Below, piece after piece: positions 3,228 through 40,887 of a DNA stretch of 64,000 nucleotides. The translations under genes and the position numbers were made by a program. The stretch lies in assembly GCA_040285855.1 (NCBI GenBank), contig JAUFOQ010000003.1, positions 1,302,001-1,366,000 on the forward strand. Reading direction: 5' to 3'. The stretch's first letter is position 1. Each line of letters starts with the position of its first letter. This DNA comes from Eukaryota sp. GEM-RC1 (taxonomy: Eukaryota). The notes under the pieces are model-generated. The model was not told the origin of the DNA and made no database searches. It was given only the letters and a program-made list of their open reading frames with translations.

Positions 3228-3284
3228 TGTTTATAAATAAAATAATATGATCTTGTAACACTTCACTAACACCTGTGGCTAACA
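3228..3284 (-). repeat. Shared short LTR between tandem gypsy copies (TGTT...AACA, 57 bp; inner boundary uncertain, could extend to about 3194)
   Basis: Identical to 9972-10028. Starts TGTTAG on the minus strand directly after a polypurine tract (GAAAGAAGAGAAGAGG) and the integrase stop codon. TGTT/AACA terminal inverted repeat. Confidence 0.75.
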
Positions 3285-4580: not shown

Positions 4581-7500
4581 GCCAAAAGTAACCACTATTG
4601 AACAACATTTCCAAACTTCGTTTCTTGTTTGGGTGTCCTGACTGGACTAAGCCATGTAGCATGTAAAGAACTTTCTTTATTAAGCTAGATGGAATCAAAA
4701 TCTTGTTCTTTGAGTTCATGTATACATTACTCATTGTACACAAAGTTGAACCATTAAACAGTTGATCTCCTTGTTCTATCGCTTTAGATTGTTCTGACCT
4801 AATGGTGGATAACCAAGAGTCAAATAAAGGAAGTTTGTTGTCTGTTGAGAGATTACGAAGACACTTGATAGCTAATACGTTGGAATCACGTGGAAGCATC
4901 TCAACATAGTCTGCATCATCATAAAGTAAGCCTTCATGAGAAAGGGTTAAATCTTTTTTGATGGAAAGATTTGAGATCGTTAAAGATTTGATTGTTTCAA
5001 CTGGGCGTCGGTCAATAACACGTGACAACATGTCAGCCCATTGATTGTTTGTACCAGCTACATGTACTATCTCAAAATCGAACTCTGAGAAAATTGGAAT
5101 CCATCGTTTGACAATACGATTCTTTTCTGGAGCAGATATAAGATAAGCAAGGTTCCTATGATCAGTAAAGATCGTCAAGTGCCTACTTAACAGAAAACCT
5201 TCTAAACTAGATTCTGTCAGAATCAAAAGAATGGCATACAGCTCTTTCTGGATAGCTGCGCAATTCTGTTGACTATCATTGAGTAAACGGCTATAAAACG
5301 ATACAGGTCTAACTCTACGTTCTTCTAACGGAGTTCCTGGAGGAGCTGGAGGATTTTCTTCCTGCCAGATCACACCACCAACAGCAATGTCGGATGCATC
5401 TGTGGATATGATAATGTTCTTATCAGTATCAGGTAAGTCTAAAGCCATATGGTTTATAATCTCAGACTTTAGTTGAGTTAATAGAGCATCATGGTCTTTT
5501 GTCCAAACAATTTTCTTGGGTTTACCACGAGTCAGTTTATTGATTGATGCAGTCAAGTTCGAATAATTCGGAATCCATTCACGAACATAATTCAAAGCAC
5601 CAAGTAAACTTCTAACTTCAGGTAAAGTTGAAGGAGCAGGTAACTCAATCAACGCCGAAACTCTTTTATCATCTATGCAACGGGTTTTATTACAAAAGTT
5701 GCTGCCCAGAATCTTATTAGGATGTCTAGAAGTGGTGAACCTACACTTCTTCAATCCAATCCGTACTCTAAAACGTTCTGCTCGTTCCAGTACTAGATTT
5801 ATTCTTGAAATAAACTCTTCAAAGGTATTGCCTACAACAATTATATCATCAATATAAATGAAAACACCTTCGACATTGAAAATTTCCTTCATGATGTTTT
5901 GAAAAATTGCTGGTACGTTTTTCAATCCAAAACATGCTCGTTTAAAGCTAATAGACATTCCAGGTATAGACACACTGGTCTTCTCGACATCTTCTTCAGC
6001 TACATTTAGCTGCCAGAATGCTTTAGGAAGGTCAAGTGTTCCAATGAAATTAGCTTTCGAAAGAAACTCTAGAACATCACAGATCCGTGGTAAATTTGGT
6101 TTCACCGGTCTGGTATTAGCATTAATCCCATCAAGTCCACTGAAATCTCCAGTTAAACGAGGCTTACGGTGATCATTATAAACCACCAAGACTATGGGAC
6201 TGCTGAACTTACCAGTTGATGGTACGGCCCATCCTTGTCGTATAAGTTCATTAAAAATTTCTTCGGCTATACGCTGTTTTTCAGGGTTAAGCCTTCTAGG
6301 AGGACGAAATACAGTGACACTTTCATCATAGAATGGAATTGTCATGGGTGGACAATCAATACCATCAGGATGTATATCTTCTGAAAAGACTTGTTTGTAT
6401 TTACTGAGTAGGCTCAGAAGCTCCGTTCTTCTTGTAGAATCATCCAATTCTATCGTGCAACCAGAGTTGTCAATGGTTTCTTCAAACAGATCTATATCTA
6501 ATTGAGTGTTACCGTACTGATCAATAGTAAAATGTGTTGAATTTGGTTTTATTGAACATTTTGATTGAACTCTATTAATCGAAATTGATGGAGACCTCAT
6601 TCTCTCATCAAATTCACTCTCTGCATTGAGAATAGTGCTATGTTCTTTATCTAATCTAATGACTAGACCATCATCCGAAAGCAACCCCAGTTCTTCTTGC
6701 AAATCTCTACCAATGAGGAGAATTTTTGTTCCTGGAACTACTGGTAGAGTATGCTTAACATGAATCTGGTTGGCCAAGCTGCCAACGTTGAACGTCAAAA
6801 CACCTATTGCACTACCTAAGGAAGTAGCACGAATATTATTCGCTGAGATGTATTCAATACAACTATCAGTAGTTGTCATCTCACAGTAGCGTATCAAATC
6901 TTGAGAAATGACTGAACATGATGCTGCTGAGTCAAATTCTCCTACTACTGGTACATTGTTGATTAACAATCGAATACATAAAGGACCCTTACCTTTAGAA
7001 TCGAACCCTAGGTTCTGGTTGAGACTACGAATTGTTTCAACAGATGATGTACTTCTACCCTTGCTTGAATGTGTGTTCAAAGCAGCCAATGGGTTCATGT
7101 ACTTATGAGGTGTAGTGTGATTATCTCTAGATGTGTTATTTGTTGCAAGTCTGAAAATATAGTTATTCTGTTGTTTATTGGAACTAAAACGACGACTAAA
7201 AGATTGACTACGACTGTCACCTGATCTACGTTTGTTGGACTTCTTATCACTGTCAGATTGAGGTTTTGATCTACAATCAGTGGAGTAATGGCCCATTTTT
7301 CCACAGTTAAAACATTTAACCGTAGACTTAACATCTCCAGGTGTACCATGAGAAGATTGAGAATGTGGCTTGTTTGCGGTATTTGGTCGATTTCTTCTAT
7401 TTCTAGAAGGAAAACGACTGGAAGGAGTGGATAAGGACTTCACAGCTGTGGAACGCTTGTAGGTAGTCCAGATCGATCTAACTTCTTGGAAGAATTGAGG

Positions 7501-9921: not shown

Positions 9922-9971
9922 CTTGGACAATAATTATTGATACCGTTTGGCTACAAAGGGTAGGGAAAAGA

Positions 9972-10028
9972 TGTTTATAAATAAAATAATATGATCTTGT
10001 AACACTTCACTAACACCTGTGGCTAACA
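9972..10028 (-). repeat. 5' LTR of the gypsy array (outer end at 10028)
   Basis: Identity with 3228-3284 ends exactly after ...GGCTAACA at 10028. Confidence 0.8.
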
Positions 10029-10029
10029 A

Positions 10030-10074
10030 TACAACATTTGGTGATACAACATTTGTAACTACAACATTTGGTGA
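10030..10074. repeat. Three 15-bp-period repeats with core TACAACATTTG
   Basis: Core at 10030, 10045 and 10060, immediately outside the LTR end. Confidence 0.9.
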
Positions 10075-10193
10075 GAATCAATCTCAATCAACGTGTCGTT
10101 TGTGTATTGAATTGTTGTTGCTCATAATTTTTTCTTCTATATATAATGTCGTTAAACACAACCAATACAATATACAATCTCAATTTATCAAAC

Positions 10194-12648
10194 TTAACTA
10201 ACACTACTATATCCCCCCATCACCCTCGCAAACATCACAGCCAACGAAAACGACTCCTTATATCCAATCCCACAACAATACTCACACATCACTTCACGAA
10301 ATTCCTCCAATATTCCCAAACACTGTTCATCACAAGCCAATTCATCATTTAAATCTAGTATCGACACAACAAAAGTATTGGTCAACGACAACACATTAAA
10401 GTACTTGTCCCTATCATTCAAATGAAAACTCAAAATTTTGGCCATCAATAAATTTAAATCTTTTAACAACTGAAGTTTCAAACTCATATGTGATTGACAT
10501 TCTGATGTTGAATCATTTTGGTTCCAATGCAGTGGTACAATATCGTGGACAATTGTTAGAATCTTTGTTTCTGTCTGCATGGCAATACTATGAGTATTGT
10601 TCAAATTGTTTTCAAAATCTGTCTGAAGACCAAGTGAATTTGGTAATCTGTTGATAGATTCAGTGACCTCATGATCTGTAACTTTTTTTGATAATTTCAA
10701 ACTAGGTAAATTCGAATTTGGTTTGAGAGTATTTCGAGACAATAGATTTGGTCTCAATTTAGGCAAAGTAGTAACTTTGGTTGTTTTTTTCAGTTTTGGA
10801 ACAGGCTTGTTAAAAATTAAATCAGAATTGATGGCACTTACACTTTGACCATTGAGACACTCATCTTCATCATCATTCACAACAAAATCATTCATACTAG
10901 ACGACGCATCGTCATCATCATCAGTTTCATCATCTCCACTATCACTTCCAGAGACAACAACTTCATTATCGAATAATTCTAAAACTGAATCAGAAGTGGT
11001 ATTCAAATTTTGAATTTTTGGAACATCTTCCACCAAATCTTCCTCAATTTCTTCATTGACTGGATCAAGAACATCAACAGTTTCCATACTTTCACCAACA
11101 ATAGAAATAATATTGGACGAAAATTCATCAAAAGTTTTCAACACAGAAGGCCAATTTCTAACAATTCTTTCATCTTCTAATGGCAAAGGATAAAGAGGTT
11201 TAGTAACCGGTCGACAGGGGTGAAAAGTGGAATAATACCACTGATAAAGGTCAATTCTTGGTTTGGGAAATCTAGAAGAAATATCTAAAATTTTAATTGA
11301 GTTCCAGTTCTTCACCCTACTCAATGTAACGTACAATTGGGCATATTCCCAAAAATTTAATGATACTTCAATTCCTTCAATTGTTAGTCCCTGAGATCTA
11401 TGGACTGTTATTGCCCAACAAGAACGAAGAGGATATTGCAATCGGTATGCTATAATTACAGGCTTTTTTCTTCTCATTCAACACCTCAATTTCAAATTTA
11501 GTCGGAATAATTTTGATTGGTTCTTCGTCCCTCCCGAATCTTACATTAATGAAATGTGAAGTTTCTGAAAAATCAATAATTTTGCCTTTTGACCCATTTA
11601 CTAGGCCCAGATCTGGTTTGTTTTGAGTAAACATTACCAAACCCCCGACGACACAGTGAAATTTTTGTTCGGCAAAATCGTTTAGCCTACTTGATAATTT
11701 TTTTACATTTAAATCAACAGCCTTTTCCATTTGTTCCTCATTAGGCTTACCAAATGCCCAACTTTTAACAATTTCTGATTTAATTAAGGGTTCATTGAAC
11801 TTATCGAGGGAATGAAATTCAACATTTTCATTCCCTTGTTCACATAATAATTCAAATTGCTTTAAATTTTCGTCGGCGACATCCTTGTTTCTAGCAAATA
11901 ATTTGGTTGGACTTTCAATATTTTTGGCTAATGACTTATGTTTCAATAAAATATGTTTCATATAGTCATCAAAAAGTCCGAGACGTATTTCATTCAAAAA
12001 ATTATAAAAATTGACATCACCTTGTTGTCGGATACTTCCAGATAATTCAATAAAATTTAAATTCAAGTCCTTCCAAGACTGTGATGAAAACGTAAAGTCT
12101 GAAAGTTGAAGAACAGTCCGTGTGTTTGAATCAGATTTTACAATTGGTGCAAGTTGCAAAAAATCACCAAATATTACAACTTGAAGTCCACCAAATGGTA
12201 ACTGAGACTTCAGTAAATCTTTAAATATATCTGATGCTCTGTTGAATAGTTCAGCAGTCAACATTGAAATTTCATCAATAACAAGCATTGAATTTCGAGC
12301 ACTTATAGTTCTTAAAACAGATTTAACACTCGAAGGCATAGACCGAATGACATCAGATATTGGTTTTTCATTACGGATAAAATTATAACCAAAGAGAGAG
12401 TGTAGTGTTTGACCACCAAAGACAGTTGAAGCAACACCAGTAGTAGCAGTAAAAAAGACATGGCCACCTGGTCTCATTATCTTGGAACCCGCATTAGACC
12501 ACCACTGTTTAAGACAGTACAGTAGGTAAGACTTGCCCGATCCGGCACCACCAGTAATGAAGAAATTCTTACGCTTAGAAGGTCTTGCATGAGTAATAGC
12601 TTGGAAGACCTGAGCCTGTTCGTCTGTAAGTGTGTTGATAATGGACAT
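10194..12648 (-). CDS. PIF1-family (SF1B) DNA helicase with long acidic/unknown C-terminal extension; one frameshift near 11470
   Basis: Motif I GGAGSGKS, TATTGVAS, GQTLHS, motif II IDEISM, PFGGLQVVIFGDFLQLAP, IRQ, NGSKG; second frame continues RLQYPL...AITVHRSQGLT, QLYVTLSRV. Confidence 0.92.
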
Positions 12649-13102
12649 TGAGTGTGTGAAGTGGTGATGTTTAAGATGCAGATTGTGCAGGGAAACTTTC
12701 CTTTCACTATAATTTATATATCTACCTCCACTTTATGGAAAATGCTGGTCGTACATAATTCTTAGAAGCTTGTTCTATCATGATGAGCTTTCTATCGTCT
12801 CATATGTCAAATTATATGTCTATGTAAAACGTGATGTTGGTGCTGAGATTGAGCTTGATGACAAGCAATGTTTCTTGTCCTTGGACTACTTTCGAGCACT
12901 TCAACACATATCCGAGTCTTTTAAAGTCACCCCCTTGGTCTTACAAATCAAACATGAGATCTCTCTCCTAGCCCTCGTTGATGCCATTCTATCTGAAGAC
13001 AAGGTATCTTCTGCTTCTGTTTCACTAAATCCAAGGTAATTCCTCCTCCTCCCTACACAGCTGATGTTCCTCGTAGAAGTAGAACACCCCGATTTGTGTT
13101 CT

Positions 13103-13709
13103 CTATATGTCGAATGTAATCTCCTTATTGCTATTTGTTATAAAATACAACTGTTCTTTATACTTAAACAATGAATCAATGAAACTCACAAACTCCTTGT
13201 CACAATCTGCATCACATTCACAAATCTCATTCACATCAAACAAGTTGAACAACGAAGACACCCTTTTAACAACAACGGACATGTCAACAAACTCCTCATC
13301 TTGACTGTTCTCACACATAAGTATTATATCTGTCAATGTTTCAGAACATCCTGTAAACTCTTGGAATACTTCAGTAAGTAACAATTCCCTACATTCATCA
13401 CCATTCAAGGATAGTAGCAAAACTGTCAATACTTTAACTAGACACTGTCGATCATTAATACTCCAAAGAAATTCGGAAATCCATGGTACCCTTTTTAAGA
13501 TCATCTGGTAAGTCAGATGTTGACACTTCCGTTATGTGGATGGATTTAGTTCTCCATGAATTGTATGTTCCATAAGGAAGAAGAACAAGTGACAAATTAA
13601 CTGCATGCTTATCAGCAAGCTTTACAACAAGTTTCATATATGTTTTGATGGTACGGGAACGACTTTCTTGTTCAGAAGTATTTCTGAGTTTGAAGATTGA
13701 GTAGGACAT
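13103..13709 (-). CDS. Hypothetical protein (two overlapping ORFs, probably one frameshifted gene) inside the PIF1/Fanzor region
   Basis: ORFs 13455-13709 and 13103-13504 overlap at an A run; no recognisable motif. Confidence 0.35.
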
Positions 13710-13856
13710 GGGAAATTCTGGTATAGACTTTATTACAGATTTCGTTTTTTAACACGTGAATTCACACACACATGTCCATTACAGTCTGTGTGGGATTTCA
13801 TTTTCCTTCCTCCTACAGTATAAATGTCGTTTGTTCTGCATCCAAACAGATGTTGT

Positions 13857-14116
13857 CCGCCATCCTGTCCTTATCTGACTCAACTTGTGACTGTTTCCAT
13901 TGCACGGTTTCGGGCTCAGTTGAGTTTAGATAAGGACAGTTCTTCTCCCTCCACTGCCGTTGCTTCTCCCTCTACTGCCGTTGCTGTGATGACTGCCGTT
14001 GCTTTCCCCACTGCCGTTGCTGTGATGATGCCGCCATTCTGTCCTTATCTGACTCAACTTGTGACTGACTCCTTTGCACGGTTTCGGGCTCAGTTGAGTT
14101 TAGATAAGGACAGTTC
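13857..14116 (+). repeat. Direct repeat of an approximately 86-bp unit, each containing a 75-nt hairpin, separated by ACTGCCGTTGCT minirepeats
   Basis: Units at 13857-13942 and 14031-14116. CTGTCCTTATCT...AGATAAGGACAG forms a perfect 12-bp inverted repeat, with further inner stems. Confidence 0.9.
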
Positions 14117-14150
14117 ATTCTGTGTTTTATCAACACATACATTTGTTGCC

Positions 14151-17100
14151 ATGAAGTACTCGTCTCCCCTGTTTATCCCTTCCCATCCTCCGTTCCCAAA
14201 AGACCTCACCGCTGATGGTGATATTGAATCCAATCCAGGACCCGTAACTCAAGAAGCCATAAACTCAGTTTATCCTCATCAATGGGTTGATGACGAAGCG
14301 ATAGTGGAGTACTGTAAAGTGATATTTCAAGAAGCAGAGTTAGACTTTGAAAGCATGTTTATCCATCCGACCACATGGCTTCAATACATTGTTTCACCAG
14401 ATGTCCCGCTAGATCAATGGTTGTTGACGAAAATTCAGCGAAATCAAAGAACAAACTCCAAATACCTCTTTGTTCCCCTTAGTGATACCATGACTAGAAA
14501 TGCTAATTATTCCAGAGAAGGTGTCACTGGTTCTCATTGGGGTTTAGCCATTATAGACTGTTGTGAAAAGGAATGGATCTTCATTGATCCAATGTTAACT
14601 AGCGAAGATATGAGTAAGTCTATGGTAAAATCAGCTGTAGACATATTATCCGAAGTACTTGTGCCATGGGGGTATGTTTTCCGTTATGTGCCTGTGACTA
14701 AAACACAGTCTGCTAACGACTGTGGAGTTTATGTCATTGCGTATATTCAAAAATATGTTGAACTTTTTAAAAGACTCACGTATGTTCCGTCTCTGATGTA
14801 TTTGGAAACTTATTTGGTCCAAGTGAACAATGAACTTCAAGCAGACATATTTCGTGAAAAAATTCTGGATGTATTGTCTCAACAAAGGACACTTTATCTG
14901 CAACAACGTCAAACCACAGTAGCTCCTATTGTACCATCGTTACCCATTCAACCTCCTGCCGGTGAAGAACGTCCAACCACTTCAATTCCTCTCACAGGTT
15001 CACGTCTTGCTAGCACTAAAACATCTACTGGTTTAAGCACTAAAAAAAGTAAGCCCAAAATTTCTGATATTCCATCACCACGAGGTTCACCTTTAATTCA
15101 ACGAAATAAATTTAGAACTACCAGCTCCCTTGTTTCAACTGGTGACACTCCAATACGAAAGACTCACCGCCGTATGTCCACATTGGAATCATCTGAAGTA
15201 ACATCATCTGAATTACCTCCATCACCATCTGAATTACCACCATCTGAACTACCACCAAAATCACAGGCCTCCATTATGTCGTATCCATTGCCAATTCAAA
15301 AGAAATTCATAATATGGAAGTAAATCTACACACTGAGCCTATCGAACAAGAAATACAAATTCAAGACTTTCTTAAATCCCCTCTTCTTTGGAATAATCTT
15401 CCCACTTTTTGTTTAATTGACGTTCAAAGTGATTTTGCCAAAAAGAAAGAATTAATGGCAGAAATGTTCAACTTGTTCAAGAAGATGATGATGACATTGA
15501 AACTGTTGAAGGTGAAGCTGAAGATCAATTCGAAGTTAAACGTGATTCTTCTGTTGATCCGATTGTATCAATTTCCATCCAGATCATTGATCACAATGAG
15601 TTTAATGAAAAACATTTATTTTCTCATGGCAATTTTGATACTACAAACTTGGATTTGTGTACTTTACATATTTCAGATAGTGAATCCAGTATGCTTAAAA
15701 ACTTCATCTCCTTCATTACTCAACATTGTCCACGATTGTTTGTGAGTTATGACTTTCACTTAGATACATTTCCCTTTCTTTTATCACGTTGTAAAGTCCT
15801 CAAAATCAATACAACGTTTACTTTTCCAGAATTTAAACCCTATATTCCCTTTTGGTTCAACAAATGGTGTAAGGAAACAACTTTTGGTCCGTTTTTTAGT
15901 CTCGATTTGAATGCTGTACTGAAGAATTTTTATGTCTTTACTGGTGGCCGTTTTTTGGAAAATGTTGTTCAAATTTTTCTTGAAATGAATAATTTTTCTA
16001 AAAATGAAACTGTCAAACGCTTGGAAGTACTTTATCATGACTCTGATCCTGATGAAGTTCAATTGGTCAATAATGTCCAAAACTTACATGGCATAATTGA
16101 CAGTATTAATGTTTTAGTTCCAGACAATCCCAAAGTGAAGGTCGATAAGATTGAAAAGAAATTTGTAAAAAATTTGGAGAAAGTAAATGAACTTTGGGCC
16201 AAGGAATCGACAAAACCGCTATTGTTGATCAACTCAATTCAACAATTACCTCTGATTGAGTACTTGTTGGCTGACCTATTGGATCCCAAAAAGCAAACAT
16301 TACGTTCAAAGTCACCAATGAAAGTGGTTAAGAAACGACTGGACAATGTTGTATCCAAAGCGAAGGTTAAATTTATTGAATCTCGTGTTAAGAGAGCTCA
16401 CCAAGTAAGAGTCCGTAGTACTCTCTTTTTGAAACATTTTTTTGTTCATAATTTTCACCATTCAGGTATTTTAGGTTACATTTAGAAGTTACTGCCTGCT
16501 GTTTCAAATGTAACTGTTAAGGAAGAAATGAATTCTGATACAGATGAGTCAACTGAAGAAGAAACAGATGTACATTCAGAGTCTATCGATGCTACTGCTC
16601 CTCCCGTTAAATTAGAAAATATTGAAGATGCGAGTGGTGAACCTGAACCTGACCTTTGGACTAGAATTCAAACTACCAAAATTGAATTGCCAGACTGGAA
16701 GAATTTTTTTACGTTGAAATCAATGGAACAAGTGTTGTCTATGATGACGATTAGGGACCACAAACTTGTAAACAATCAGAATCATATTGAGACTGTAAAA
16801 GAGTCTTTAGAAAACATAATTTCTAACACAAATGATGGCCCAACTCAAAATCAGTTTGCTCAACATTTCTTGATGCATTACATTCCTCGTTTAGAAATAG
16901 CTGCTCGATCTGTTGGACTTGATAGGATTGTGTTTCCCAGTAGTCATCGTTTATCTCCTATATTGCATTACATGGCTACAGAAATTATTACAAATTACAA
17001 GACTAACATGAGTGAACACTTTCACGAATATGTTTTTCAAGTATTTAATTTGGTTACCCTGAAAAAAGATAGACTTAACAAGCTTAGTGATAAGAATCAA

Positions 17101-19260
17101 CGACAAGAGTTGTGTACAAAGCTTAATGAAGTCAGACAGTTGATCATTAATGGGGAAATTTCAAAAATTAATTTTCAAGATGTTGAAGTGTTTCCTGATC
17201 CCAATTCTAGAGAGAGAGATGTTTATTCGGCACCCAATAAGGTAACCTTTCTACAAACTATAAACTCCCAATTCTAGACTGAGTTTACTATTTTTTAATT
17301 ATTTGTTTACTTTTTTTGAAGGTAAAATGGAGAAAACAATCTATTATGCTGAAAAAGTAGATCCTTTGAAATTCTTAAGTCATGCAGTGTATTTAAAACG
17401 TCTTGTTGAAGACTCTTGTACTGGTGTTACTGCCAATAATCCTTTTCCTCTGACAAAATCATTGATTCCTAATCATATCAGATTGGATACTACATGGTTT
17501 AAAAAAGTTTATGCATCAGAAATTAAAGGTAGCTTTGATGACGTTCGAAAAGATATTGGCACTCAGTTTTGAAACCAAAGTTTCTTCCAAAGTCATTGTC
17601 TCATGACTTCAAATACAGTTCTATTTCTACAGATGGAGTTAGCTGTAGTTTAATGATGATGCGGAAAGATCTGCTTGATGGGAGAGGAAATCCTCATAAG
17701 AAGGTGAAAGCTGTTGACTACACAGCTACTGAAAGGTACATTGATTCTTTGAGTTCCACAGAAATTCAAAACTTAAATTTGAAATCAAAAAGAATTGTTG
17801 CTATTGATCCTAATCAGCATGATTTGATGTATTGTGCTTCTTTAAAATCTAAGGAGGAAAAGAAAATCGAAGGTTTCGATACATCAGCCAATCTCAGAAG
17901 AAGAACGATTTGTCCAAAATCGTCAAAGAAAAAAAGGAAGCTTGAAAAAATTAAAAAAGGAATTGAAGGATTGGAAAGACGCACCTACTATTGACAAACC
18001 ATCAACTGTCAAGTTGAAAAATCGAGACAATTGGAAAGTATTCAGATACACTGCTGGGGAACGCAATGCCGATATTAAAAAGTCTCCATGGAAAAGAAAA
18101 AAACAAGGAAGGAAAGAAAAAGAGCTAAGAGAAAGAAGAGGAAGCTGGAGAAGAAAATAAGACGATACAATCTCCACCGTTTATCTGAATCCGAACGGTT
18201 ACAACAATATTCTACTCAATTTATTCACATTCCAGATGGCAGACGCATTGACATAAATGGGCAACAAATTTTAGATCAATGGGGCTCTAACTCGCCAGGC
18301 AGTAGATCTTGTGATTTGACTCAGTATTCTGATTTTGTTCTTGGTAAAGAAATTACCTGTTCTTTATTACGATCACCCACTACTGATCAAAGAACTACTG
18401 AAGGAATTTACGAAGAAAAGTGGTTTAGGAGGAATCGTCTCACACAGTATTCAAGAAAGGAACGAAGTGAGAAAAACATGCTTCACAGATTTGCTCTCCA
18501 ATTTGGTAACCCAGATGAAGTCGTTGTTGGGTATGGAGACTGGAACGACACTACTTTTCGTCGAAGAAGAGGTAAAGCATCTACTGTAAAAGGTGCTTCA
18601 ATTCGGAAATTATTGGGAAAATTTGGATTTAAAGTGTTCCTAGTTGATGAATTTAAGACCAGCAAATGTTGCTCTGCATGTGTTTCCAGAAACGACGAAG
18701 GTATCTGTTCCAATCCTGAAAGGATAAAAGTCACTGATCCTCATTGGAAGAAGAAGTTACAGAAGGAAGAGAAAAGAATTAAAAAAGGAAATTATGGAAC
18801 ACAATCAATTAGACAATATTGTGGAGCGTAACTTTGAAAAGAATGGACAGACCAGTTGCCATTTTCGAAAGAAAGATTGAAGAACAACAAAGTCTCACCA
18901 TGGGGCTTAGTTGAATGTGCTAAATGTCATGTCCTCTGGAATAGAGACTTCAACTCTGCTATCAATATTTACAATATTGTAAATGGAACCATTCAAGGTC
19001 AAGGTAGACCTGCCATCCTCGAGAGACCAAAATCTCAAACAACACCTGTTGTGGATGGCGGGAATACAGATCAGATTCCTAAGAAAAAGACTGTGAGTAA
19101 GGGTAAGGGTAAGGCAAAACGTCCTCCAACAACTGTCAGAGGTCCTAACAAGTGTCGTATATGTTCTCAACCTGGACATAACAAAACAACTTGTCCAAAT
19201 AAGCCTAAGAAAGATGTACCCAAGGACTCACACGTAAACCAGAAAGATCAGGAATCTTGA
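14151..19260 (+). CDS. Putative multidomain Fanzor1 polyprotein: 2A peptide, Ulp1/SENP8-like protease, PolB exonuclease-like domain, Fanzor (RuvC), CCHC knuckle; broken by frameshifts, two in-frame TAGs and/or introns
   Basis: Consecutive same-strand ORFs join at homopolymer runs. Domain motifs are listed in the sub-features. The upstream in-frame ATG at 13824 is an alternative start. Confidence 0.7.
14202..14243 (+). other. 2A / StopGo ribosomal skipping peptide
   Basis: DLTADGDIESNPGP matches the D(V/I)ExNPG|P consensus with the typical upstream L..xGD. Confidence 0.9.
14244..14880 (+). other. Ulp1/C48 cysteine protease domain (SENP8/DEN1-like)
   Basis: WVDDEAI, LFVPLSD...GSHWGLAII, FIDP, QSANDCGVYV: His-Asp-Gln-Cys catalytic motifs intact. 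Confidence 0.88.
15390..16010 (+). other. Family-B DNA polymerase 3'-5' exonuclease-like domain, probably catalytically degenerate
   Basis: Across two frames: FCLIDVQ (ExoI DxE changed to DxQ), DPIVSISI, ESSMLKNFISFITQHCPRLFVSYDFHLDTFPFLLSRC (ExoII-like), FSLDL, FLENVVQIFL. Confidence 0.6.
16290..19030 (+). other. Fanzor1 (eukaryotic TnpB homologue) domain region
   Basis: N-terminal VVKKRL...VKRAHQ...TLFLK; PFPLTKSLIPNHIRLDT; ISTDGVSCSL; RuvC-I AIDPN (D at 17806); FRYT; YGDW; RuvC-II VDEFKTSKCCSAC (E at 18649); CAKC and RuvC-III WNRDFNSAINI (D at 18946). Confidence 0.92.
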
Positions 19261-19394
19261 ATCTATGAAGTTAGCTCGTCTTAAAAGACTTTGCGAATGA
19301 GGACATTTATTTGTTCAAACTGTGGGTTTTGCTCTATGAGATCATGAAAATGTGAAGGGTTATGCCCTTATGCATTTGGAATGAAATTCACAGT
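19246..19394 (+). ncRNA. Putative Fanzor omegaRNA scaffold
   Basis: Directly 3' of the Fanzor ORF. Hand-predicted stems: GTCTT/AAGAC (19278-19289), GGACA/TGTTC (19301-19316), ACTGTGGGTTTT/GAAATTCACAGT (19319-19330 with 19383-19394), AAATGTGAAGGG/CCCTTATGCATTT (19348-19377). Confidence 0.6.
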
Positions 19395-19449
19395 AGTAAG
19401 GTAGAAGACAATTTCAATGGGAAATTTGAACTTTGAGGATGTTGATTAG
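19395..19449 (+). mobile_element. 3'-terminal coding fragment of the CRE-like non-LTR retroelement
   Basis: Reads KVEDNF...GNLNFEDVD*, compared with KVGENFQLGNLDFEDIDY* at 39837-39895 (minus strand); nucleotide similarity is also visible. Confidence 0.75.
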
Positions 19450-19793
19450 AGTGTTTAATTCTGACGCGTACGTGTTTCGTTCGAGAAAAACAATGATCAA
19501 AAAAAACTAAGTGTACAAAGTTTACTTAGTGAACTATATTTTACAGATACGGAGTCAAATAATTGAAGAAACATTGTACTACTCGAATTAAATAAATTCT
19601 AAAATAACTAAGCCTATCGAAAATTGAGCCAACAGAAGTAAATAAATACAACCTTGGCATCAGTCTAGGACCAAAACAAAAAAGAATCTAATCAGATACT
19701 AATCAACGACTAAATCTCACGTAATACAAAACCAAAAAGCATCATATTCTCAACTTCAATCAATATTGAACAGAGACATAAAAAACCACAAAA

Positions 19794-22700
19794 TCACGAA
19801 TTCCGTCCAAGTTCTTTCATTGTTTCATCCTTTAACTTGTTACAAATCTCATAAAACAGTGCAGACTCCCGATGTTCATGCTTCTTTGGAGTACTACTAT
19901 TAGACCTGGGAATGGGATGAGGTTTAGGTAAAACCAATGAGGGAGAGTGAAGAACAGAAGGAGAGGGAGCAAATCGTTCTGAGGAAGGAACCCAAGGACT
20001 TGAAGGAGATTTACTTTTCTCCAAATTAAAATTAGCCTTTTGTAATTCTCTAACTCTACTCTGCAGCTCATCAACAGCAGACCTTTTCGAGGAACGTACA
20101 CGTGACCTTGATTGGCTCACATAGGGTGTATACGAGTGGACAGCGGGTGAGCTGTCAGTTATAGACTGTACTGTAGACTCCAATTCAGAGATACGTTTTC
20201 TAGACAACTTCAACTCTTCAAGAATGGGACTAGTAACACTGTGTTCTGAACTTCTGGTACTTCTAAAGGAAGATCTTAAATCACTGATAGAATTACGTAA
20301 ATCAAGAATTACTTCATCACGGTCTTGAAGATCCTCTTTACACGTCATCAAACGACGACGGAGGATGTCAACTGTAGCGTCACTTTCACCTCTGAGAGCT
20401 TCTAAGGCATTAATTTGAGCTTTAAGATCGAAAATTTGAGAATTTAAAATTTTTGTTTGGGAAGATGTTGACTCAAGATTCACAAATACCTGGTGATAAT
20501 CGTGTTCCAGTTCATGATACTTCTCTGTCAATTTAGCTAACTGACGCGAGGAATCCTTGTGGGAAGCTAACCGTGCCTTCAAGTCTTCAATTGCCATTGA
20601 CTTCTTTTCAACAGCGGCTGTACATTCTTGAATATAAGCTAATAATTTGTTTTTGGACTCAGACAAACCTTCTACCCTGTTACATAGAGCATCAGAGTTC
20701 TTTCTTTCTTCTAGTAAAAGCTGACTTAGAGAACGATTGGAGCTTTCTAATTGTAACACTTTGGTGGATAATTCAGAAATCGAAGATGATAGTTTTAGGC
20801 TTTCAAAGCGAAGTTTCTTTTGTTCAGCGTTGTTATCATCGTTGATAGCTGATAATGATTGTTTGGAATCAGAAAGTGATGAGATTCGATCCCTTAGTGA
20901 TTGGTTTCGAGTTCGTTCCCGTTGAAGTTTCTGATCGGCATCTTCTTGAATTTTTGAAATTTCATGAGACTTTTGTTGAAGTTGATGTTTAAAGTCCAAG
21001 ATAGACTTATCATGATCCTTACGTAGTTGATTTAAATTTTCGCTTAAATTTGAGATCTCAGAGTCTTTTTCTTCGATTAAGTCCTCTAATTCAACTTTAA
21101 CTTCAGTAATTGTTTTAATTTGTTCAACAATTTCAGACAGATATTGGTTCGTTCTGTGAGCTTCAGAATCTTTTTCACTAATTGTAGATTCCAAATCTTG
21201 AATAATTGATTCATAATTTGAAAGTTGAGTTTTTAATTCAGTCAATGAGTGATCATTTCCATCAGTAATAGATTTTAATTTCAAAGAAAGAGACGAAATT
21301 TCATCGTCTTTTTCTGACAACAATTGTTCCAAATTCAGTTTTTCTTTGATAATGTGTTGAATTTTACAAGTCAACAAGGAATGAGAATTTGGTGGTAACG
21401 AAGCAGTTTCATTGGGCATTTCAGGTAAATTATCTTGAATTTCGAATAATTCGGCTTCTTTTTCAGATATTTCAGTTTTGAGATTTGAAATTGCAGACTC
21501 GTAACTATTCAATTGGTCTTTTAACTGGGAAACTGTGGCAGATTCTTCACTACGTAGTTCACTCAAATTTTGGCTCAAATTTGAAATTTCTGTATCTTTT
21601 TCTTCAATTAATTCCTCTAATTCAATTTTTACTTCAGTAACTGCTTTAATTTGATCTACAATTTCAGAAAGATGAACGTTAGTCCTGCGAGCTTCAGAAT
21701 CTTTTTCACTAATTGTGGATTCCAAATCTTGAATAATTGATTCGTGATTTGAAAGTTGAGTTTTTAATTCAGTCAATGAGTGGTCATTTACATCAGTAAT
21801 AGATTTTAATTTCAAAGAAAGAGATGAAATTTCATCGTCTTTTTCTGACAACAATTGTTCCAAATTAAGTTTTTCTTTGACCATGTGTTGAATTTTACAA
21901 GTCAATAATGAATGAGAATTTGGTGGTAACGAGGCGGTTTCATTGGGAATTTCAGGTAAATTATCTTGAATTTCTAATAATTCGGCTTCTTTTTGAGCTA
22001 TTTCAGTTTTGAGATTTGAAATTGCTGACTCATAACTATTCAATTGGTCTTTTAACTGGGAAACTGTGGCAGAATCTTCACTACGTAGTTGACTCAAATT
22101 TTGCCTCAAATTTGAAATTTCTGTATCTTTTTCTTCAAGTAACTTCTCCAACTCAGATTTAGCTTCAGTAACTGCTTTAATTTGATCTACAATTCCAGAC
22201 AACTTTTGATCGGATTGTTGAGCTTCAGAATCTTTTCACTAATTGTAGATTCCAAATCTTGAATAAGGGCTTCATAATTTAAAAGTTGAGTTTTTAATTC
22301 AGTCAATGAGTGGTCATTTCCATCAGTAATAGATTTTAATTTCAAAGAAAGAGACGAAATTTCATCGTCTTTTTCTGACAACAATTGTTCCAAATTAAGT
22401 TTTTCTTTGATAATGTGTTGAATTTTACAAGTCAACAATGAATGAGAATTTGGTGGTAACGAGGCGGTTTCATCAGGCATTTCAGGTAAATTATCTTGAA
22501 TTTCTAAAAATTCGGCTTCTTTTTGAGCTATTTCAGCTTTGAGATTGGAAATTGTAGACTCGTAACTATTCAATTGGTCTTTTAACTGGGAAACTGTTGC
22601 AGAATCTTCACTACGTAGTTGACTCAAATTTGAAATTTCTGTATCTTTTTCTTCAAGTAACTTCTCCAACTCAGTTTTAGCTTCAGTAACTGCTTTAATT

Positions 22701-25700
22701 TGATCTACAATTCCAGACAACTTTTGATCGGATTGTTGAACTTCAGAATCTTTTTCACTAATTGTAGATTCCAAATCTTGAATAAGGGCTTCATAATTTA
22801 AAAGTTGAGTTTTTAATTCAGTCAATGAGTGGTCATTTCCATCAGTAATAGATTTTAATTTCAAAGAAAGAGATGAAATTTGATCGTCTTTTTCTGACAA
22901 CAATTGTTCCAAATTCAGTTTTTCTTTGATAATGTGTTGAATTTTACCAGTCAACAATAAATGAGAATTTGGTGGTAACGAAGCGGTTTCATTGGGCATT
23001 TCAGGTAAATTATCTTGAATTTCGAATAATTCGGCTTCTTTTTGAGCTATTTCAGCTTTGAGATTGGAAATTGCAGACTCGTAACTATTCAATTGGTCTT
23101 TTAACTGGGAAACTGCGGCAGAATCTTCACTACGTAGTTGACTCAAATTTGAAATTTCTGTATCTTTTTCTCCAAGTAACTTCTCCAACTCAGTTTTAGC
23201 TTCAGTAACTGCTTTAATTTGATCTACAATTCCAGACAGCTTGTGATCGGATTGTTGAACTTCAGAATCTTTTTCACTAATTGTAGATTCCAAATCTTGA
23301 ATAAGGGCTTCATAATTTAAAAGTTGAGTTTTTAATTCAGTCAATGAGTGGTCATTTCCATCAGTAATAGATTTTAATTTCAAAGAAAGAGACGAAATTT
23401 CATCGTCTTTTTCTGACAACAATTGTTCCAAATTAAGTTTTTCTTTGATAATGTGTTGAATTTTACAAGTCAACAATGAATGAGAATTTGGTGGCAACGA
23501 AGCGGTTTCATCAGGCATTTCAGGTAAATTATCTTGAATTTCTAAAAATTCGGCTTCTTTTGAGCTATTTCAGCTTTGAGATTGGAAATTGCAGACTCGT
23601 AACTATTCAATTGGTCTTTGAACTGGGAAACTGTGGCAGAATCTTCACTACGTAGTTGACTCCAAATTTGAAATTTCTGTATCTTTTTCTTCAAGTAACT
23701 TCTCCAACTCAGTTTTAGCTTCAGTAACTGCTTTAATTTGATCTACAATTCCAGACAACTTTTGATCGGATTGTTGAACTTCAGAATCTTTTTCACTAAT
23801 TGTAGATTCCAAATCTTGAATAAGGGCTTCATAATTTAAAAGTTGAGTTTTTAATTCAGTCAATGAGTGGTCATTTCCATCAGTAATAGATTTTAATTTC
23901 AAAGAAAGAGATGAAATTTGATCGTCTTTTTCTGACAACAATTGTTCCAAATTAAGTTTTTCGTCACTATCAACGGCAATTCTTTGATTCATCGACTGTT
24001 TTTCCTTTTGAATTAATTCAGATAATTTAGAATTTTCCAGTTCCTTTTCAGCCAATTCAGCCTTTAATTCTTCTAAATCCACAGACGAATCAGTAACTAC
24101 TTGGTTTTTAAAATTTGCCAATGTAGAAATCTCTGCAACTAACCTCTGAGGAACAGTTCCTCTTGTTCTAATTTCAGTAATTAAATCAGTAAAATACTGA
24201 GAAACACTAGAAAGTTCATCTGATTGCGCTTCTAGTTTACTAACTTGGTCATCAAAATCAACGATATTTGTCTCTAAATACAGTGAATCTAATTGAGATC
24301 TGACTTGATCTAATTGTTGATCATTTGCTGAGAGAGATTGTTTTAAGAAAGTTATCACGTGTGATGGAGAAAGTGAAGAACAATCTAAAGGAGGGGTATT
24401 TGAATTGTCTTGAATTTCTAATAATTCGGCTTCTTTTTGAGCTATTTCAGCTTTGAGATTGGAAATTGCAGACTCGTAACTATTCAATTGGTCTTTTAAC
24501 TGGGAAACTGTGACAGAATCTTCACTACGTAGTTGACTCAAATTTTGACTCAAATTTGAAATTTCTGTATCTTTTTCTTCAAGTAACTTCTCCAACTCAG
24601 TTTTAGCTTCAGTAACTGCTTTAATTTGATCTACAATTCCAGACAACTTTTGATCGGATTGTTGAACTTCAGAATCTTTTTCACTAATTGTAGATTCCAA
24701 ATCTTGAATAAGGGCTTCATAATTTAAAAGTTGAGTTTTTAATTCAGTCAATGAGTGGTCATTTCCATCAGTAATAGATTTTAATTTCAAAGAAAGAGAT
24801 GAAATTTGATCGTCTTTTTCTGACAACAATTGTTCCAAATTAAGTTTTTCGTCACTATCAACGGCAATTCTTTGATTCATCGACTGTTTTTCCTTTTGAA
24901 TTAATTCAGATAATTTAGAATTTTCCAGTTCCTTTTCAGCCAATTCAGCCTTTAATTCTTCTAAATCCACAGACGAATCAGTAACTACTTGGTTTTTAAA
25001 ATTTGCCAATGTAGAAATCTCTGCAACTAACCTCTGAGGAACAGTTCCTCTTGTTCTAATTTCAGTAATTAAATCAGTAAAATACTGAGAAACACTAGAA
25101 AGTTCATCTGATTGCGCTTCTAGTTTACTAACTTGGTCATCAAAATCAACGATATTTGTCTCTAAATACAGTGAATCTAATTGAGATCTGACTTGATCTA
25201 ATTGTTGATCATTTGCTGAGAGAGATTGTTTTAAGAAAGTTATCACGTGTGATGGAGAAAGTGAAGAACAATCTAAAGGAGGGGTATTTGAATTGTCTTG
25301 AATTTCTAATAATTCGGCTTCTTTTTGAGCTATTTCAGCTTTGAGATTGGAAATTGCAGACTCGTAACTATTCAATTGGTCTTTTAACTGGGAAACTGTG
25401 ACAGAATCTTCACTACGTAGTTGACTCAAATTTTGACTCAAATTTGAAATTTCTGTATCTTTTTCTTCAAGTAACTTTTCCAACTCAGTTTTAGCTTCAG
25501 TAACTGCTTTAATTTGATCTACAATTCCAGACAACTTTTGATCGGATTGTTGAACTTCAGAATCTTTTTCACTAATTGTAGATTCCAAATCTTGAATAAG
25601 TGCTTCATAATTTGAAAGTTGAGTTTTTAATTCAGTCAATGAGTGGTCATTTCCATCAGTAATAGATTTTAATTTCAAAGAAAGAGACGAAATTTCATCG

Positions 25701-28283
25701 TCTTTTTCTGACAACAATTGTTCCAAATTCAGTTTTTCGTCACTAACAATGGCAATTCTTTGATTCATCGACTGTTTTTCCTTTTGAATTAATTCAGATA
25801 ATTTAGAATTTTCCTGCTCCTTTTCAGCCAATTCAGCCTTTAATTCTTCTAAATCCACAGACGAATCAGTATCTACATGGTTTTTAAAATTTCCTAATGC
25901 AGAAATCTCTGCAACTAACCTCTGAGGAACAGTTCCTTTTGTTCTAATTTCAGTAATTAAATCAGTAAAATACTGAGAAACACTAGAAAGTTCATCTGAT
26001 TGCGCTTCTAGTTTACTAACTTGGTCATCAAAATCAACGATATTTGTCTCTAAATACAGTGAATCTAATTGAGATCTGACTTGATCTAATTGTTGATCAT
26101 TTGCTGAGAGAGATTGTTTCAGAAAAGTTATCACGTGTGATGGAGAAAGTGAAGAACAATCTAAAGGAGAGCTGTTTGAATTATCTTGAATTTCTAATAA
26201 TTCAGCTTCTTTTGAGCTATTTCAGCTTTGAGATTGGAAATTGCAGACTCGTAACTATTCAATTGGTCTTTTAACTGGGAAACTGTGGCAGAATCTTCAC
26301 TACGTAGTTGACTCCAAATTTGAAATTTCTGTATCTTTTTCTTCAAGTAACTTTTCCAACTCAGTTTTAGCTTCAGTAACTGCTTTAATTTGATCTACAA
26401 TTCCAGACAACTTTTGATCGGATTGTTGCACTTCAGAATCTTTTTCACTAATTGTAGATTCTAAATCTTGAATAAGTGCTTCATAATTTGAAAGTTGAGT
26501 TTTTAATTCAGTCAATGAGTGGTCATTTCCATCAGTAATAGATTTTAATTTCAAAGAAAGAGACGAAATTTCATCGTCTTTTTCTGACAACAATTGTTCC
26601 AAATTCAGTTTTTCGTCACTAACAACGGCAATTCTTTGATTCATCGACTGTTTTTCCTTTTGAATTAATTCAGATAATTTGGAATTTTCCAGCTCCTTTT
26701 CAGCCAATTCAGCCTTTAATTTTTCTAAATCCACAGACGATTCAGTAACTACTTGGTTTTTAAAATTTCCTAAATCAGAAATCTCTGCAACTAACCTCTG
26801 AGGAACAGTTCCTTTTGTTCTAATTTCAGTAATTAAATCAGTAAAATACTGAGAAACACTAGAAAGTTCATCTGATTGCGCTTCTAGTTTACTAACTTGG
26901 TCATCAAAATCAACGATATTTGTCTCTAAATACAGGGAATCTAATTGAGATCTGACTTGATCTAATTGTTGATCATTTGCTGAGAGAGATTGTTTCAGGA
27001 AAGTTATCACGTGTGATGGAGAAAGTGAAGAACAATCTAAAGGAGGGGTATTTGAATTATCTTGAATATCTAATAATTCAGCTTCTTTTTGAGCTATTTC
27101 AGCTTTGAGATTGGAAATTGCAGACTCGTAACTATTCAATTGGTCTTTTAACTGGGAAACTGTGGCAGAATTTTCACTACGTAGTTGACTCAAATTTGAA
27201 ATTTCTGTATCTTTTTCTTCAAGTAACTTTTCCAACTCAGTTTTAGCTTCAGTAAGAACTTGAATCTGACTTAAATATTCTTCTCCACTGACTGAATCAT
27301 CGCCATCGCCACTTACTTCTGTAGCAATCGACATCTCACCTGCCTGTTTAGAAATCTGATTAAAATGATTACCCCAATCACGTGACTGTCTAGGTGTCTT
27401 AGCCAAAGAAAAGAAAAGACAAATCGTCATCATCGCTAGCTGCTAACTGTTGTTCCAACTCAGCGATCCTATTACTTGCCTTAACAAGTTCTTGACCACG
27501 TTTTTTTAATGTTGATTCAGTTTCGTCAAGTTTAAAAACCAAAGAATTCCGTTCCTGAACTACAGCACGTGATTTAGTATGAATTCTCTTGACTTCTGCC
27601 TCTAGTTCTGACACTCTGTTCTGAAGAGCAGTATTTTCATTAACAACTCCTTGGTAGAGTTCATTCTTTTCACTTAACTGAACACGTAAAGAACGTTGTT
27701 CAACGTCTAAAAAGCGGGTTCTGGCCTCTTCTCGTTCTGATTCAAGGATGCTGGAGGAATCAAGATGGTTCAAAGAGGGTATACAGTAGCAAGTGAAGAG
27801 GCGGTAATGAGGAAGGTCTGAGATGGGAGTTCTGGTAAGACATAGAGTTGAGAGCGAACAAGATTTAGAGAGATGTTGGACTTCACGCAGAGAAGTTATG
27901 GGGTTTCCGGAAAGTCGGAGTTCTGTAAGAGATTTGAGTTTGGAAAGAGATGGTGGGATATGAGAAATGTGGTTGTCGTTTAGAATCAATATTTCAATAG
28001 AGGTAAGAGCCTGGATGTTATCAAAGCATGTGATTCTGTTTAATGAGAGGTCCAGTAGTCTTAGACCTGGGAGAATGCCAGAAAGTGAAGTTATGGCATG
28101 ATCATTGATGATTAATTCACGAAGGTTTGGCAGTAAGTGTAGGTTCTCTATTGTACGGATGTAGTGGTTATCAGAATGTTGACGTTTGAACACGAGACGT
28201 GAAGATTCCTTCAGGGTGTCTGAAGTTTGACTTGTGGCACGGATAAGAAGATCATTTGTGAGGTAACGAGTTTGCTCAGACAT
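19794..28283 (-). CDS. Large N-terminal LRR plus coiled-coil repeat protein (centriolin-like architecture), split by homopolymer frameshifts
   Basis: SDS22-type LRRs and LRRcap (YRLF...IPSLNHLD...ER) in 27399-28283, then heptad-rich tandem repeats and a unique C-terminus. Confidence 0.7.
21040..27255 (-). repeat. Intragenic tandem repeats: four units of 876-888 bp and about five units of 519-531 bp sharing a common core
   Basis: Landmarks at 24081/24969/25857/26733 and 21421/21952/22482/23001/23520. Confidence 0.9.
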
Positions 28284-29005
28284 AAAAGTGCATGCAGGTT
28301 GATCAAATTGGTGCGTGGTGGTTTTTTTGGAAGTTATTATCTTGATGTAATTTTCGAGTTTTGTACTACAATGTAGTATCTTCAGAATCTACCATTTGTG
28401 GTTAATTCCAAGGGTTAAATCTGCAGCGGTTTAACCCCTAATTTGACCAATTCTACTTGGAATTGGTTCAAGTCAGCTCTGAAAGAACTTCAAGGTTTCT
28501 TTTATAAACCTGCCCTTTTAGGAAGGAATACTAATAGAGTAATAAAGTGTGTTTCTTTGATTCACTCGGAACAGACATTTTAAAAAAAGATGTAGATATG
28601 TGATTTAAACGGTTTTATAATTTCGTTTTTGGTTGTCGTCTTAAATGTAAAACTGCTAATGTACGGTAATCTGATCTTTTAGGTTTTTGATGTCTGATTA
28701 TACATCAATGTCAAATAACTAATTTTTGTATTACAAGTAATTGTAACAAGCCGACTTGTTCATTGAATATGAATTAAAACAGATGAAAGAATAATACACA
28801 CTTTAATACTTTCACATAATAACTTCACTATACTTGCAAAAAACCATTTCATCACTGGTAATAACACTAACAGTTCTATCACAATAGGTCACCAAAGAAC
28901 CCTATTCCAACTTGACTCAAACTTATTTCAAAAACACTCAATATACACATCATCATCAATCAAATCGATCACTCAATAGGAACATAGTAAGCCAAGCCAA
29001 TGCAA

Positions 29006-38745: not shown

Positions 38746-38854
38746 TTATATGAAATTTTGTACCATCCATCAATAAACTATTCATTTTAAAATAATGTTC
38801 GAAATCCAGGTTTTCGAATGCCTTCAAAGGCTTATTTTAAAGTTTAACCACACA

Positions 38855-39686: not shown

Positions 39687-39836
39687 GGGAGAATTATTGT
39701 TTTTTGAATAAATAGGTATCGAAAACTATAGGTTTCAATTTTGAATATAATATATTGAACAAATTCTAGAACTGTCAACATCCTTTTTTTTTAATCATAG
39801 TGGTTTCTTGACAACAACATTAGAGTGTACATACAT

Positions 39837-40625
39837 CTAATAATCAATATCCTCAAAGTCCAGATTGCCTAACTGGAAATTTTCACCTACCTTATGTTCA
39901 TAATGTCTGCCAAGAGATAATAAAGCGCTAGATACAGAAGTCACCATACCTTTAAAGATAGCAAACACGATTCGATTTTTCCAAAATCTAAGATCAAAAG
40001 TCCTAGATGTTTTTTCTTTTACAATCTTCACAAAGATTTCAAGTAATGATGTTGCAGATTCACCTAAAGAACCGTACAGTGAAAATACAAAAGGGTACAG
40101 CAAGTAATTCGAGTGTGAAGCGGAATTCAATAATTTCAATTTAGCACAATATTTTTGCATTTTAAATTTTTCACCAATCAACAAGGGGTTTTGAGCATTA
40201 GATATAGCAAGTTTCTTGTTGGAATCATTACAAACATCGATAGACATAACATCAGCAATAATGAAAGATCCATCGAGACCAGGAAATATGACATCACCAC
40301 GGCTATTTCCAAACGATTTGTCAACATCTGAATCATCAAACAAACCAGCCAGAACTGGTTCTAAAAAGGAAACTGTTCCAAAAGATTTACACATACAATA
40401 TAATTGTCCCTTACTGAATCATGAACCTTACTTCTAAAAAGAAATAAAACGGTTACAATTCAATAAATGTGTAGGTGTTACAGATTGCCCACATTGGCAT
40501 TTCAAATTACGTGGAAGGTTATCAGGCCAAATATATGACCGTAAACGTATGTTTAATGACCAAGAGTTATCATCAAGAAGAAGACCGTAAACTTGAGGGA
40601 TTTGAGTAAGTCAAACCAAACTTGT
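39837..40625 (-). mobile_element. 5'-truncated CRE-like non-LTR retrotransposon (C-terminal knuckle and RLE domain)
   Basis: LTQIPQVYG...CQCG...THLLNC; FLEP, SRGDV, ADV, GEKFKMQKY, PFVFSLYGSLG. Confidence 0.78.
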
Positions 40626-40887
40626 ATGACTTGAACCAAGACCTCTAACAAATACCTGCTACATCACTGTAGTAGTGAGCTAAATTTATAGAAGCATGAG
40701 TATTATACATCAATCAGACGGGTGAGCTTTATTGGATTCTCATCAGTTCGAATTTTTTAAATGTACTGGATTTGATGATTTTACAGTGATCATATCCCGT
40801 TCATGAACTAGTAAAAAACCAGGCTGAATTACCAGCATGTTAAAAAATAGACACAATACTGTATAATTCAAAAGAAAACAAGAGACA

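Follow-up and report, generated by a model that had tools for sequence, protein, structure and literature searches.

The Fanzor1 element described here probably inserted at a TA dinucleotide within the already decayed tail of a CRE-like retrotransposon, and its guide would be aimed at one empty site, not at the retrotransposon family. The analysed DNA, a stretch of 64,000 nucleotides, is referred to below as the window. Sequence comparisons support the conclusion that the bases following the predicted omega-RNA scaffold come from the retroelement and hence would form the guide. Since the predicted guide matches no family member that could be checked, it probably does not hunt the family. Which event came first, TA as the target and the function are inferred.

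The eukaryotic DNA of the window is dense in genes and rich in repeats: a gypsy array comes first and is followed by host genes and dispersed retroelement pieces. All closest named relatives of its Fanzor and retroelement proteins come from Eukaryota sp. GEM-RC1, a metamonad. Its published assembly combines long reads with correction by short reads, and repeats make up 48% of it (PMC11316075). Traits of other Fanzor and retroelement copies were taken from protein records, which served as a proxy for family size; copy numbers are therefore counts of gene models, not of elements. The features on which the analysis is based are collected in Table 1.

Table 1. Positions of the Fanzor1 gene, the predicted scaffold and guide, and the associated retroelement and helicase sequences in the window
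Feature	Positions	Strand	Evidence
PIF1-like helicase gene, frameshifted, multi-copy	10194..12648	-	PF05970 E 4e-33; cluster of 5
Broken Fanzor1 gene with 2A-like motif, Ulp1/C48 protease, PolB-exonuclease-like domain, Fanzor1 and C-terminal zinc knuckle	13824..19260	+	Pfam, P0218, P0010, frame map
2A-like motif DIESNPGP	14220..14243	+	frame map
PolB 3'-5' exonuclease-like domain	15493..15822	+	PF03104 E 2.8e-8
In-frame TAG stop; P0218 reads through here	16483..16485	+	frame map, P0218
Break of 67 nt that shifts the frame, with 55 inserted nt flanked by 12-bp direct repeats	17200..17278	+	frame map, alignment
RuvC-I motif IVAIDPN	17794..17814	+	alignment A1
RuvC-II glutamate, VDEFKTS, six residues ahead of first zinc-finger cysteine pair	18637..18681	+	alignment A1
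Second cysteine pair and RuvC-III motif, CAKC...WNRD	18916..18957	+	alignment A1
76-nt core of the predicted omega-RNA scaffold, closed by a 13-bp stem that includes G-U pairs and encloses a hairpin; starts 58 nt past stop	19319..19394	+	folding
Junction AG/TA: 2 bases matching neither side, then TA starting the retroelement similarity	19395..19398	+	sequence alignment
Putative guide, start between 19395 and 19399	19397..19413	+	fold and 14-15 nt SpuFz1 guide length
Decayed 3' tail of CRE-like non-LTR retrotransposon, from its final codons through the stop and 3' UTR to A8 (19499-19506)	19397..19506	+	self-BLAST, shuffles, motif
Closest relative in the window, a CRE-like copy truncated at its 5' end that retains the endonuclease region, 3' UTR and A-tail	39790..40658	-	90% cluster of 25 proteins

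The Fanzor1 gene and its polyprotein

The published Fanzor1 motif reads D-X(125-275)-[TS]-[TS]-X-X-C4 finger-X(5-50)-RD, with the catalytic glutamate about six residues before the finger (PMC3627910; PMC13565253). Its elements are present in the window as IVAIDPN, VDEFKTSKCCSAC, CAKC and WNRD and are conserved in alignment A1; in the related protein P0037, the spacing from D to TS slightly exceeds 275 residues. The only significant matches of P0037 among solved structures were SpuFz1 (8gkh, E 1.7e-15) and Fanzor1 of Parasitella parasitica (9cf0, E 2.3e-10). By these matches, the family appears nearer to Fanzor1 than to Fanzor2/TnpB. Pfam detected C48, DNA_pol_B_exo1, Cas12f1-like_TNB and zf-CCHC_2 in the gene, the last two below the cut-off. 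The motif DIESNPGP is 2A-like. By eye, the exonuclease-like domain misses some acidic motif residues, and the Ulp1/C48 protease domain gave a weak match to SENP8.

A single protein, P0218, covers 13857-16710 with an Ulp1-type protease, the exonuclease-like domain and the Fanzor start, and the sister-family protein P0010 fuses the exonuclease-like domain to a whole Fanzor. The full polyprotein was pieced together from such overlapping records, because no single record spans its full length; the family appears to encode one polyprotein of ~1,800 residues in a gene of ~5.4 kb. A protease-exonuclease-Fanzor fusion was not found in the available portions of the literature, and this polyprotein is probably the most interesting feature here, more unusual than the guide.

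Besides the in-frame stop and the insertion, both of which look real, further frame changes were found near 15300, 15442, 17557, 17932, 18094, 18773 and 18838. Several of the frame changes are repeated in other gene models (P0031, P0030, P0039, P0211, P0217), so that long-read errors, and not decay, may account for them. Less probably, the break at 17200-17278 is a short intron beside a misread GA run. A tiny palindromic repeat with arms of ~19 bp lies at 43820-43876; one arm and the spacer recur at 17212-17266 in the Fanzor gene, where the insert matches the repeat at 86% over 35 nt. Judged from its reading frames, the window copy probably no longer makes a nuclease. Three in-frame blocks of its Fanzor are 90-100% identical to other copies, and in three further copies a C-terminal part of 644 aa is unbroken and includes every RuvC motif. 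The C-terminal Fanzor clusters comprise 26 and 14 gene models, and the sister family 13. With dozens of young copies in one metamonad genome, the element ends, the duplication and the TAM could be read from it.

Scans with alignment A1 yielded only distant loci, at 23-36% identity: 80 from metagenomes, 58 from viruses and 3 from prokaryote genomes. None of these 141 loci matched the predicted scaffold (best E 0.17), nor the PIF1 protein, the polyprotein N-terminus or the retroelement proteins at E 1e-4, and an exact 23-mer of the scaffold had no match among metagenome contigs. Three of the loci (L139, L140 and L141) are Fanzor1-like genes assigned to a single bacterial metagenome-assembled genome; their contigs are short, have low coverage and are likely viral or eukaryotic ones that were binned with it.

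Predicted omega-RNA scaffold and guide

The segment 19310-19396 folds with a z-score of -3.24, equalled by 1 of 200 shuffles; the closing stem comprises 19319-19394, and folding places a hairpin at 19355-19369 inside it. Three overlapping stretches gave z-scores of -1.95 to -2.53, and the flank gave +0.39. The entire 19180-19420 region scored -0.35, so that the signal is limited to the shorter stretches, which were picked after that fold had been viewed. An Rfam scan of 19100-19800 returned no match, and the scaffold end at 19394 is predicted from folding alone.

Similarity to the retroelement begins 2 nt past the predicted stem, and the flank bases are therefore probably the guide. The coincidence of the stem end (19394) and the start of similarity (19397) within 2 nt favours a true element end over a random deletion or a misjoin. 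Across the junction point, the copy at 39837 reads CATA/AGGTAG, which places a TA at the junction. Because TA occurs at 6.4% of window positions, the TA junction is at most suggestive. In the related SPu-1/SpuFz1 system, SPu-1 produces TA duplications (PMC3627910) and the TAM is CATA (PMC3627910; PMC10432273). The SpuFz1 scaffold is 75 nt long, and its RNAs extend 14-15 nt into the variable flank (PMC10432273). According to a review, the 3' duplication counts as scaffold in solved structures (PMC13565253), in which case the guide here would begin at 19399.

Retroelement origin of the flank

Self-BLAST aligned 19397-19448 with 39894-39841 on the minus strand at 79.6% identity (43 of 54 columns, one 2-nt gap, E 4.5e-5). 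The best score of 19395-19449 elsewhere in the window was 46.4 bits, and the maximum in 200 dinucleotide shuffles was 31.0. Self-BLAST and shuffles thus agree with the original prediction that the sequence after the scaffold is homologous to the 3' end of the non-LTR element at 39837-39895. The limits given there for the match, 19395-19449, need adjustment: the ungapped similarity starts at 19397 (the preceding bases are AG, against CA in the copy) and extends past 19449. The stretch from the stop codon to the tail of the flank aligns to the 3' UTR of the 39837 copy (23 of 2000 shuffles equally good), and ATGATC+A8 (19493-19506) occurs three times in the window, always at 3' ends of the CRE-like family. 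The UTR alignment and this tail together identify the flank as a 110-base retroelement terminus.

The reading frame of the flank is broken, and 11 of 15 residues are retained, counted over the codons outside the 2-nt gap. Within the window only the 39837 copy aligns to it by blastn; the flank is diverged, is without a close twin there and continues into the 3' region of the host gene at 19794. Its differences include silent and conservative ones, of the kind that separates sister subfamilies. In comparison, where the last 67 residues of P0224 are aligned, 16 members of the subfamily match it at 86-100% identity. Given this identity and the 90-100% identity among Fanzor copies, the retention of 11 of 15 residues indicates that the flank probably diverged before the insertion, or belongs to an unannotated sister subfamily.

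The family is abundant in the window, as had been predicted from at least five recurring fragments: a C-terminal profile of the family matched at 37851-38625, 38847-39089, 39840-40634, 50804-51319, 58640-58924 and 62653-62763, with weaker matches at 62773-63163, and tblastn added 57350-57427. Most of these pieces represent other subfamilies, with 28-52% amino-acid identity to the 39837 copy. A search with the protein of the 39837 frame retrieved 150 representatives at E <=0.001 and 88 at 1e-10. Longer family members bear a non-LTR reverse transcriptase (in P0067, RVT_1 E 1.4e-23, with R2 and LINE-1 as the best solved matches); within the window, no reverse transcriptase domain of the family was found. 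On the basis of motifs and of features of the reverse transcriptase, 'CRE-like' is a fair label. A loosened CCHC-RHD-E-RPD-D pattern fits 30 of 173 family proteins, mostly fragments, with V/L/I-HD in place of RHD and, in most matches, RGD or RAD in place of RPD. The endonuclease pattern published for CRE/SLACS/MoTeR is CCHC + RHD/N + E + R/KPD + D/E (PMC12857005). Site-specific insertion into spliced-leader genes or telomeres was not seen in the window, where the pieces are scattered among unrelated genes.

In gene models, 3' parts of the family are fused to many unrelated sequences, among them a gypsy integrase (P0169), a beta-lactamase (P0203) and RCC1 repeats (P0129). A further model, P0172, belongs to another named isolate; it fuses a piece of Fanzor RuvC with a retroelement 3' part from a different subfamily. 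In P0137, P0220, P0067, P0082, P0084, P0088 and P0117, as in many retroelement models, the C-terminus precedes an upstream part, which suggests head-to-tail or self-inserted copies. Two such C-terminus-first sequences appear under five accessions on one contig.

Element ends and neighbouring genes

No inverted partner of the right end with <=3 mismatches was found in the window, and none of the 25 longest inverted repeats of 10000-19800 provided a left-end partner. A left-end candidate near 13789 was discarded, because its score of 18 fell below the 20-28 reached by chance sites. The true left end may be outside the window, on the far side of the gypsy array. A profile search of the + strand of 1-19394 detected no upstream half of the retroelement. 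With the left end and the upstream half both missing, insertion of the Fanzor into a retroelement copy, as originally proposed, is plausible and unproven; the part of that proposal that stands is the derivation of the flank from the retroelement.

Membership of the PIF1-like gene in the Fanzor element is doubtful; a distance of 63-887 locus tags separates its four other listed copies from the Fanzor-family tags listed. Head to head with the polyprotein gene, within 10194-13710, stand the PIF1 gene, a short frame that looks spliced (~12740-13117, +) and an orphan frame. The orphan frame, 13103-13531 (-), matched no Pfam family, and all its atlas matches were <0.9. A Helitron2 Rep was found neither by Pfam nor among the frames read in the window. 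A remnant of the PIF1 C-terminal region (74-82%) at 62300-63845 is split by retroelement pieces in both orientations.

The gypsy array at 1-10030 (-) consists of tandem near-identical elements (99.6%) with a unit of ~6.74 kb and a very short shared terminal repeat; it contains one 1789-aa frame, one internally deleted copy and an identical pre-integrase frame break in both copies. Downstream of the junction, 19794-28388 (-) is a large, frame-split host gene with a leucine-rich-repeat start and repeated coiled-coil units (periods of ~530 and 888 bases). Other genes are an intact member of the topoisomerase VI A / Spo11 family by Pfam (40888-42153, -), an MMPL/RND-type transporter with few breaks that is bacterial-like by Pfam (44712-47692, -) and a tRNA-like sequence recognised by eye (57760-57833, -). 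Horizontal acquisition of the transporter is possible from its sequence.

Order of events at the junction

In the preferred reading, a multi-copy Fanzor1 element would have landed at a TA within an old retroelement tail that had diverged from the abundant subfamily ahead of its arrival. The bases past the predicted scaffold would then have become the guide, as in other OMEGA systems. Such a guide would cut the element-free allele or chromatid, and repair (gene conversion) would copy the element back; restoration by homing is shown for TnpB and proposed for Fanzor1 (PMC13565253; PMC10432273). The window copy would have been disrupted afterwards, and its RNA could serve at best in trans, loaded by a different copy.

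The reverse order, in which the retroelement came second, would involve a 5'-truncated copy inserted at or near the right end, or a later deletion, replacing the original guide. We consider this order unlikely. The flank does look just like a truncated insertion, being 110 bases that end in a 3' UTR and an A-tail; family matches in the window cover the C-terminal region, several 3' ends included, one family piece lies within the PIF1 remnant at 62300-63845, and the window holds no upstream half. In related fungal elements, truncated copies also outnumber full ones (PMC12857005). However, an insertion <=2 nt from the stem end would be demanded, and the flank piece looks older than the Fanzor copies. 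A target-site duplication around it was likewise not detected (longest shared word 4 nt), although three other retroelement copies, whose ends are rough, show no duplication longer than 6-7 nt either.

Targets of the guide

The original prediction had suggested that the guide could direct homing through the family or act against the retrotransposon, and had noted that the in-window copy is an imperfect target. The latter point stands: for 15-mers starting at 19395-19399, the mismatches to this copy number 5, 4, 3, 3 and 3, and unrelated window sites match the guide equally or better at 15 nt. Other family members were evaluated by back-translation with the most favourable codons over five codons from 19398. 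Scored were the 16 of 173 family proteins with the C-terminus of this subfamily, the window's own copy included; P0235, with an internal deletion there, and members without the C-terminus were unscored, and 15 members of the closest 90% cluster (25 members) were listed. Even in this best case there was no perfect target among the 16 annotated C-termini; one would have one mismatch, nine two, five three and one four. The one with a single mismatch, P0240, is a possible target. An archaeal TnpB accepts single mismatches at its cognate TAM (PMC11043419); mismatch-tolerance data for Fanzor1 were not found in the available parts of the literature. A sister subfamily reading KVEDNF was absent from 150 representatives, 16 cluster members and 9 clusters in a search with the last 67 residues. 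An unannotated sister subfamily could match the guide.

Gene-model neighbourhoods showed no enrichment: 2 of 24 retroelement models lie <=5 locus tags from any of 53 Fanzor-family models (0.92 expected, p 0.24), and 0 of 24 lie <=3 locus tags away, the locus-tag distance being a weak proxy that is blind to flanks this short. Chance suffices for one flank of this kind. Family-derived coding sequence amounts to 3737 of 64000 bases, a share of 5.8% that was measured in one window; applied to 26-40 Fanzor copies, it gives 1.5-2.3 flanks expected by chance, and the probability of at least one is 0.79-0.91. Chance insertion, which the original prediction had rated equally possible, is here ranked better than targeting, not equal to it.

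Family-wide targeting, in which intact copies would use the guide in trans to home into family members or to reduce their number, is accordingly judged highly improbable. What speaks for it is that the guide is family-derived, from the 3' end that most copies retain, that its first 7-8 nt (TAAGGTAG) are identical in the in-window copy, that gene-less loci provide working omega-RNAs for SpuFz1 (PMC10432273), that the three other copies with the unbroken C-terminal part exist, and that P0172 is a second Fanzor-retroelement junction. Against these points, perfect targets were absent among the 16 annotated C-termini, 15 of which need >=2 mismatches, neighbouring gene models were not enriched and chance accounts for one such flank. 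Moreover, dozens of cut sites would be costly, and a 20%-diverged remnant would be poor homology for homing. About equally improbable is a bolder version, in which a Fanzor1 of new build colonised the tails of the commonest retrotransposon, with several copies at the same TA; intact copies would load their shared guide, and by cutting near-matching tails the element would spread through the family or prune it.

An assembly join of two repeats is barely credible: repeats abound in the region, repeated genes there change frame many times, and the named relatives stem from long-read assemblies, but a misjoin has no reason to coincide with the stem end, and the diverged flank has no close window twin and runs on to the 3' region of the host gene at 19794.

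Comparison with known systems

If the family has been colonised, a DNA transposon and a retrotransposon of a eukaryote would be engaged in a conflict guided by RNA; Fanzor would gain a natural multi-site target, and a host role of Fanzors would become directly testable. In the literature as far as available, no report of Fanzor homing through a retrotransposon family was found, so that the idea would be new if true; supplements of published surveys may list the family. As read here, the guide matters little, since a flank-derived guide is a known design.

The closest likeness is to SPu-1/SpuFz1 of Spizellomyces punctatus (PMC3627910; PMC10432273; 8gkh): in both, the RuvC motifs and zinc finger follow the Fanzor arrangement, the stop is followed by ~75 nt of structured sequence (here predicted) and then by foreign flank, copies are multiple and a TA lies at the junction. 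Gypsy elements also lie close to SPu-1 (PMC10432273). Unlike the present element, SPu-1 is ~2.1 kb long, with inverted repeats of 30-33 bp and a 633-aa protein (PMC3627910; PMC10432273), whereas the window yielded no left inverted repeat for the present element, and the gene here is ~5.4 kb long, carries protease, exonuclease-like and zinc-knuckle additions and is broken.

The Helitron2-borne CRe-1, 2 and 3 of Chlamydomonas (PMC3627910; PMC10312701) resemble this element in having Fanzor1 at the 3' end, a structured 3' end (here predicted) and PIF1 nearby. Also as in the CRe Helitron2 elements, 3' pieces outnumber 5' ones (clusters of 26 and 14, against 3, 5 and 6 upstream), although these sizes also reflect the clustering of broken models. 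In contrast to them, neither a Rep/HUH domain nor asymmetric terminal repeats were seen in the window, and the PIF1 linkage is doubtful.

The retroelement resembles the CRE/SLACS/CZAR/Cnl1/MoTeR group (PMC12857005) in its non-LTR reverse transcriptase, the spacing of CCHC finger and endonuclease, the A-tail and the many truncated copies; unlike that group, its copies are dispersed and not confined to telomeres or one gene array. For the family-colonising reading, the nearest DNA transposon living in a repeat family is Dada (cited in PMC13565253). Dada differs in that it inserts in multicopy RNA genes, that is, conserved genes and not a decayed retroelement, by means of a transposase, and it is not known to carry a homing nuclease.

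In TnpB/OMEGA homing (PMC13565253), as in the preferred reading, the right-end flank is the guide, is new with each insertion and targets the empty site; this is shown for bacterial IS200/IS605 and IS607 elements and only proposed for Fanzor1. A Fanzor1 with a repeat-derived flank fits this known design, in which the guide is taken from the flank and repeats are to be expected there in a repeat-rich genome.
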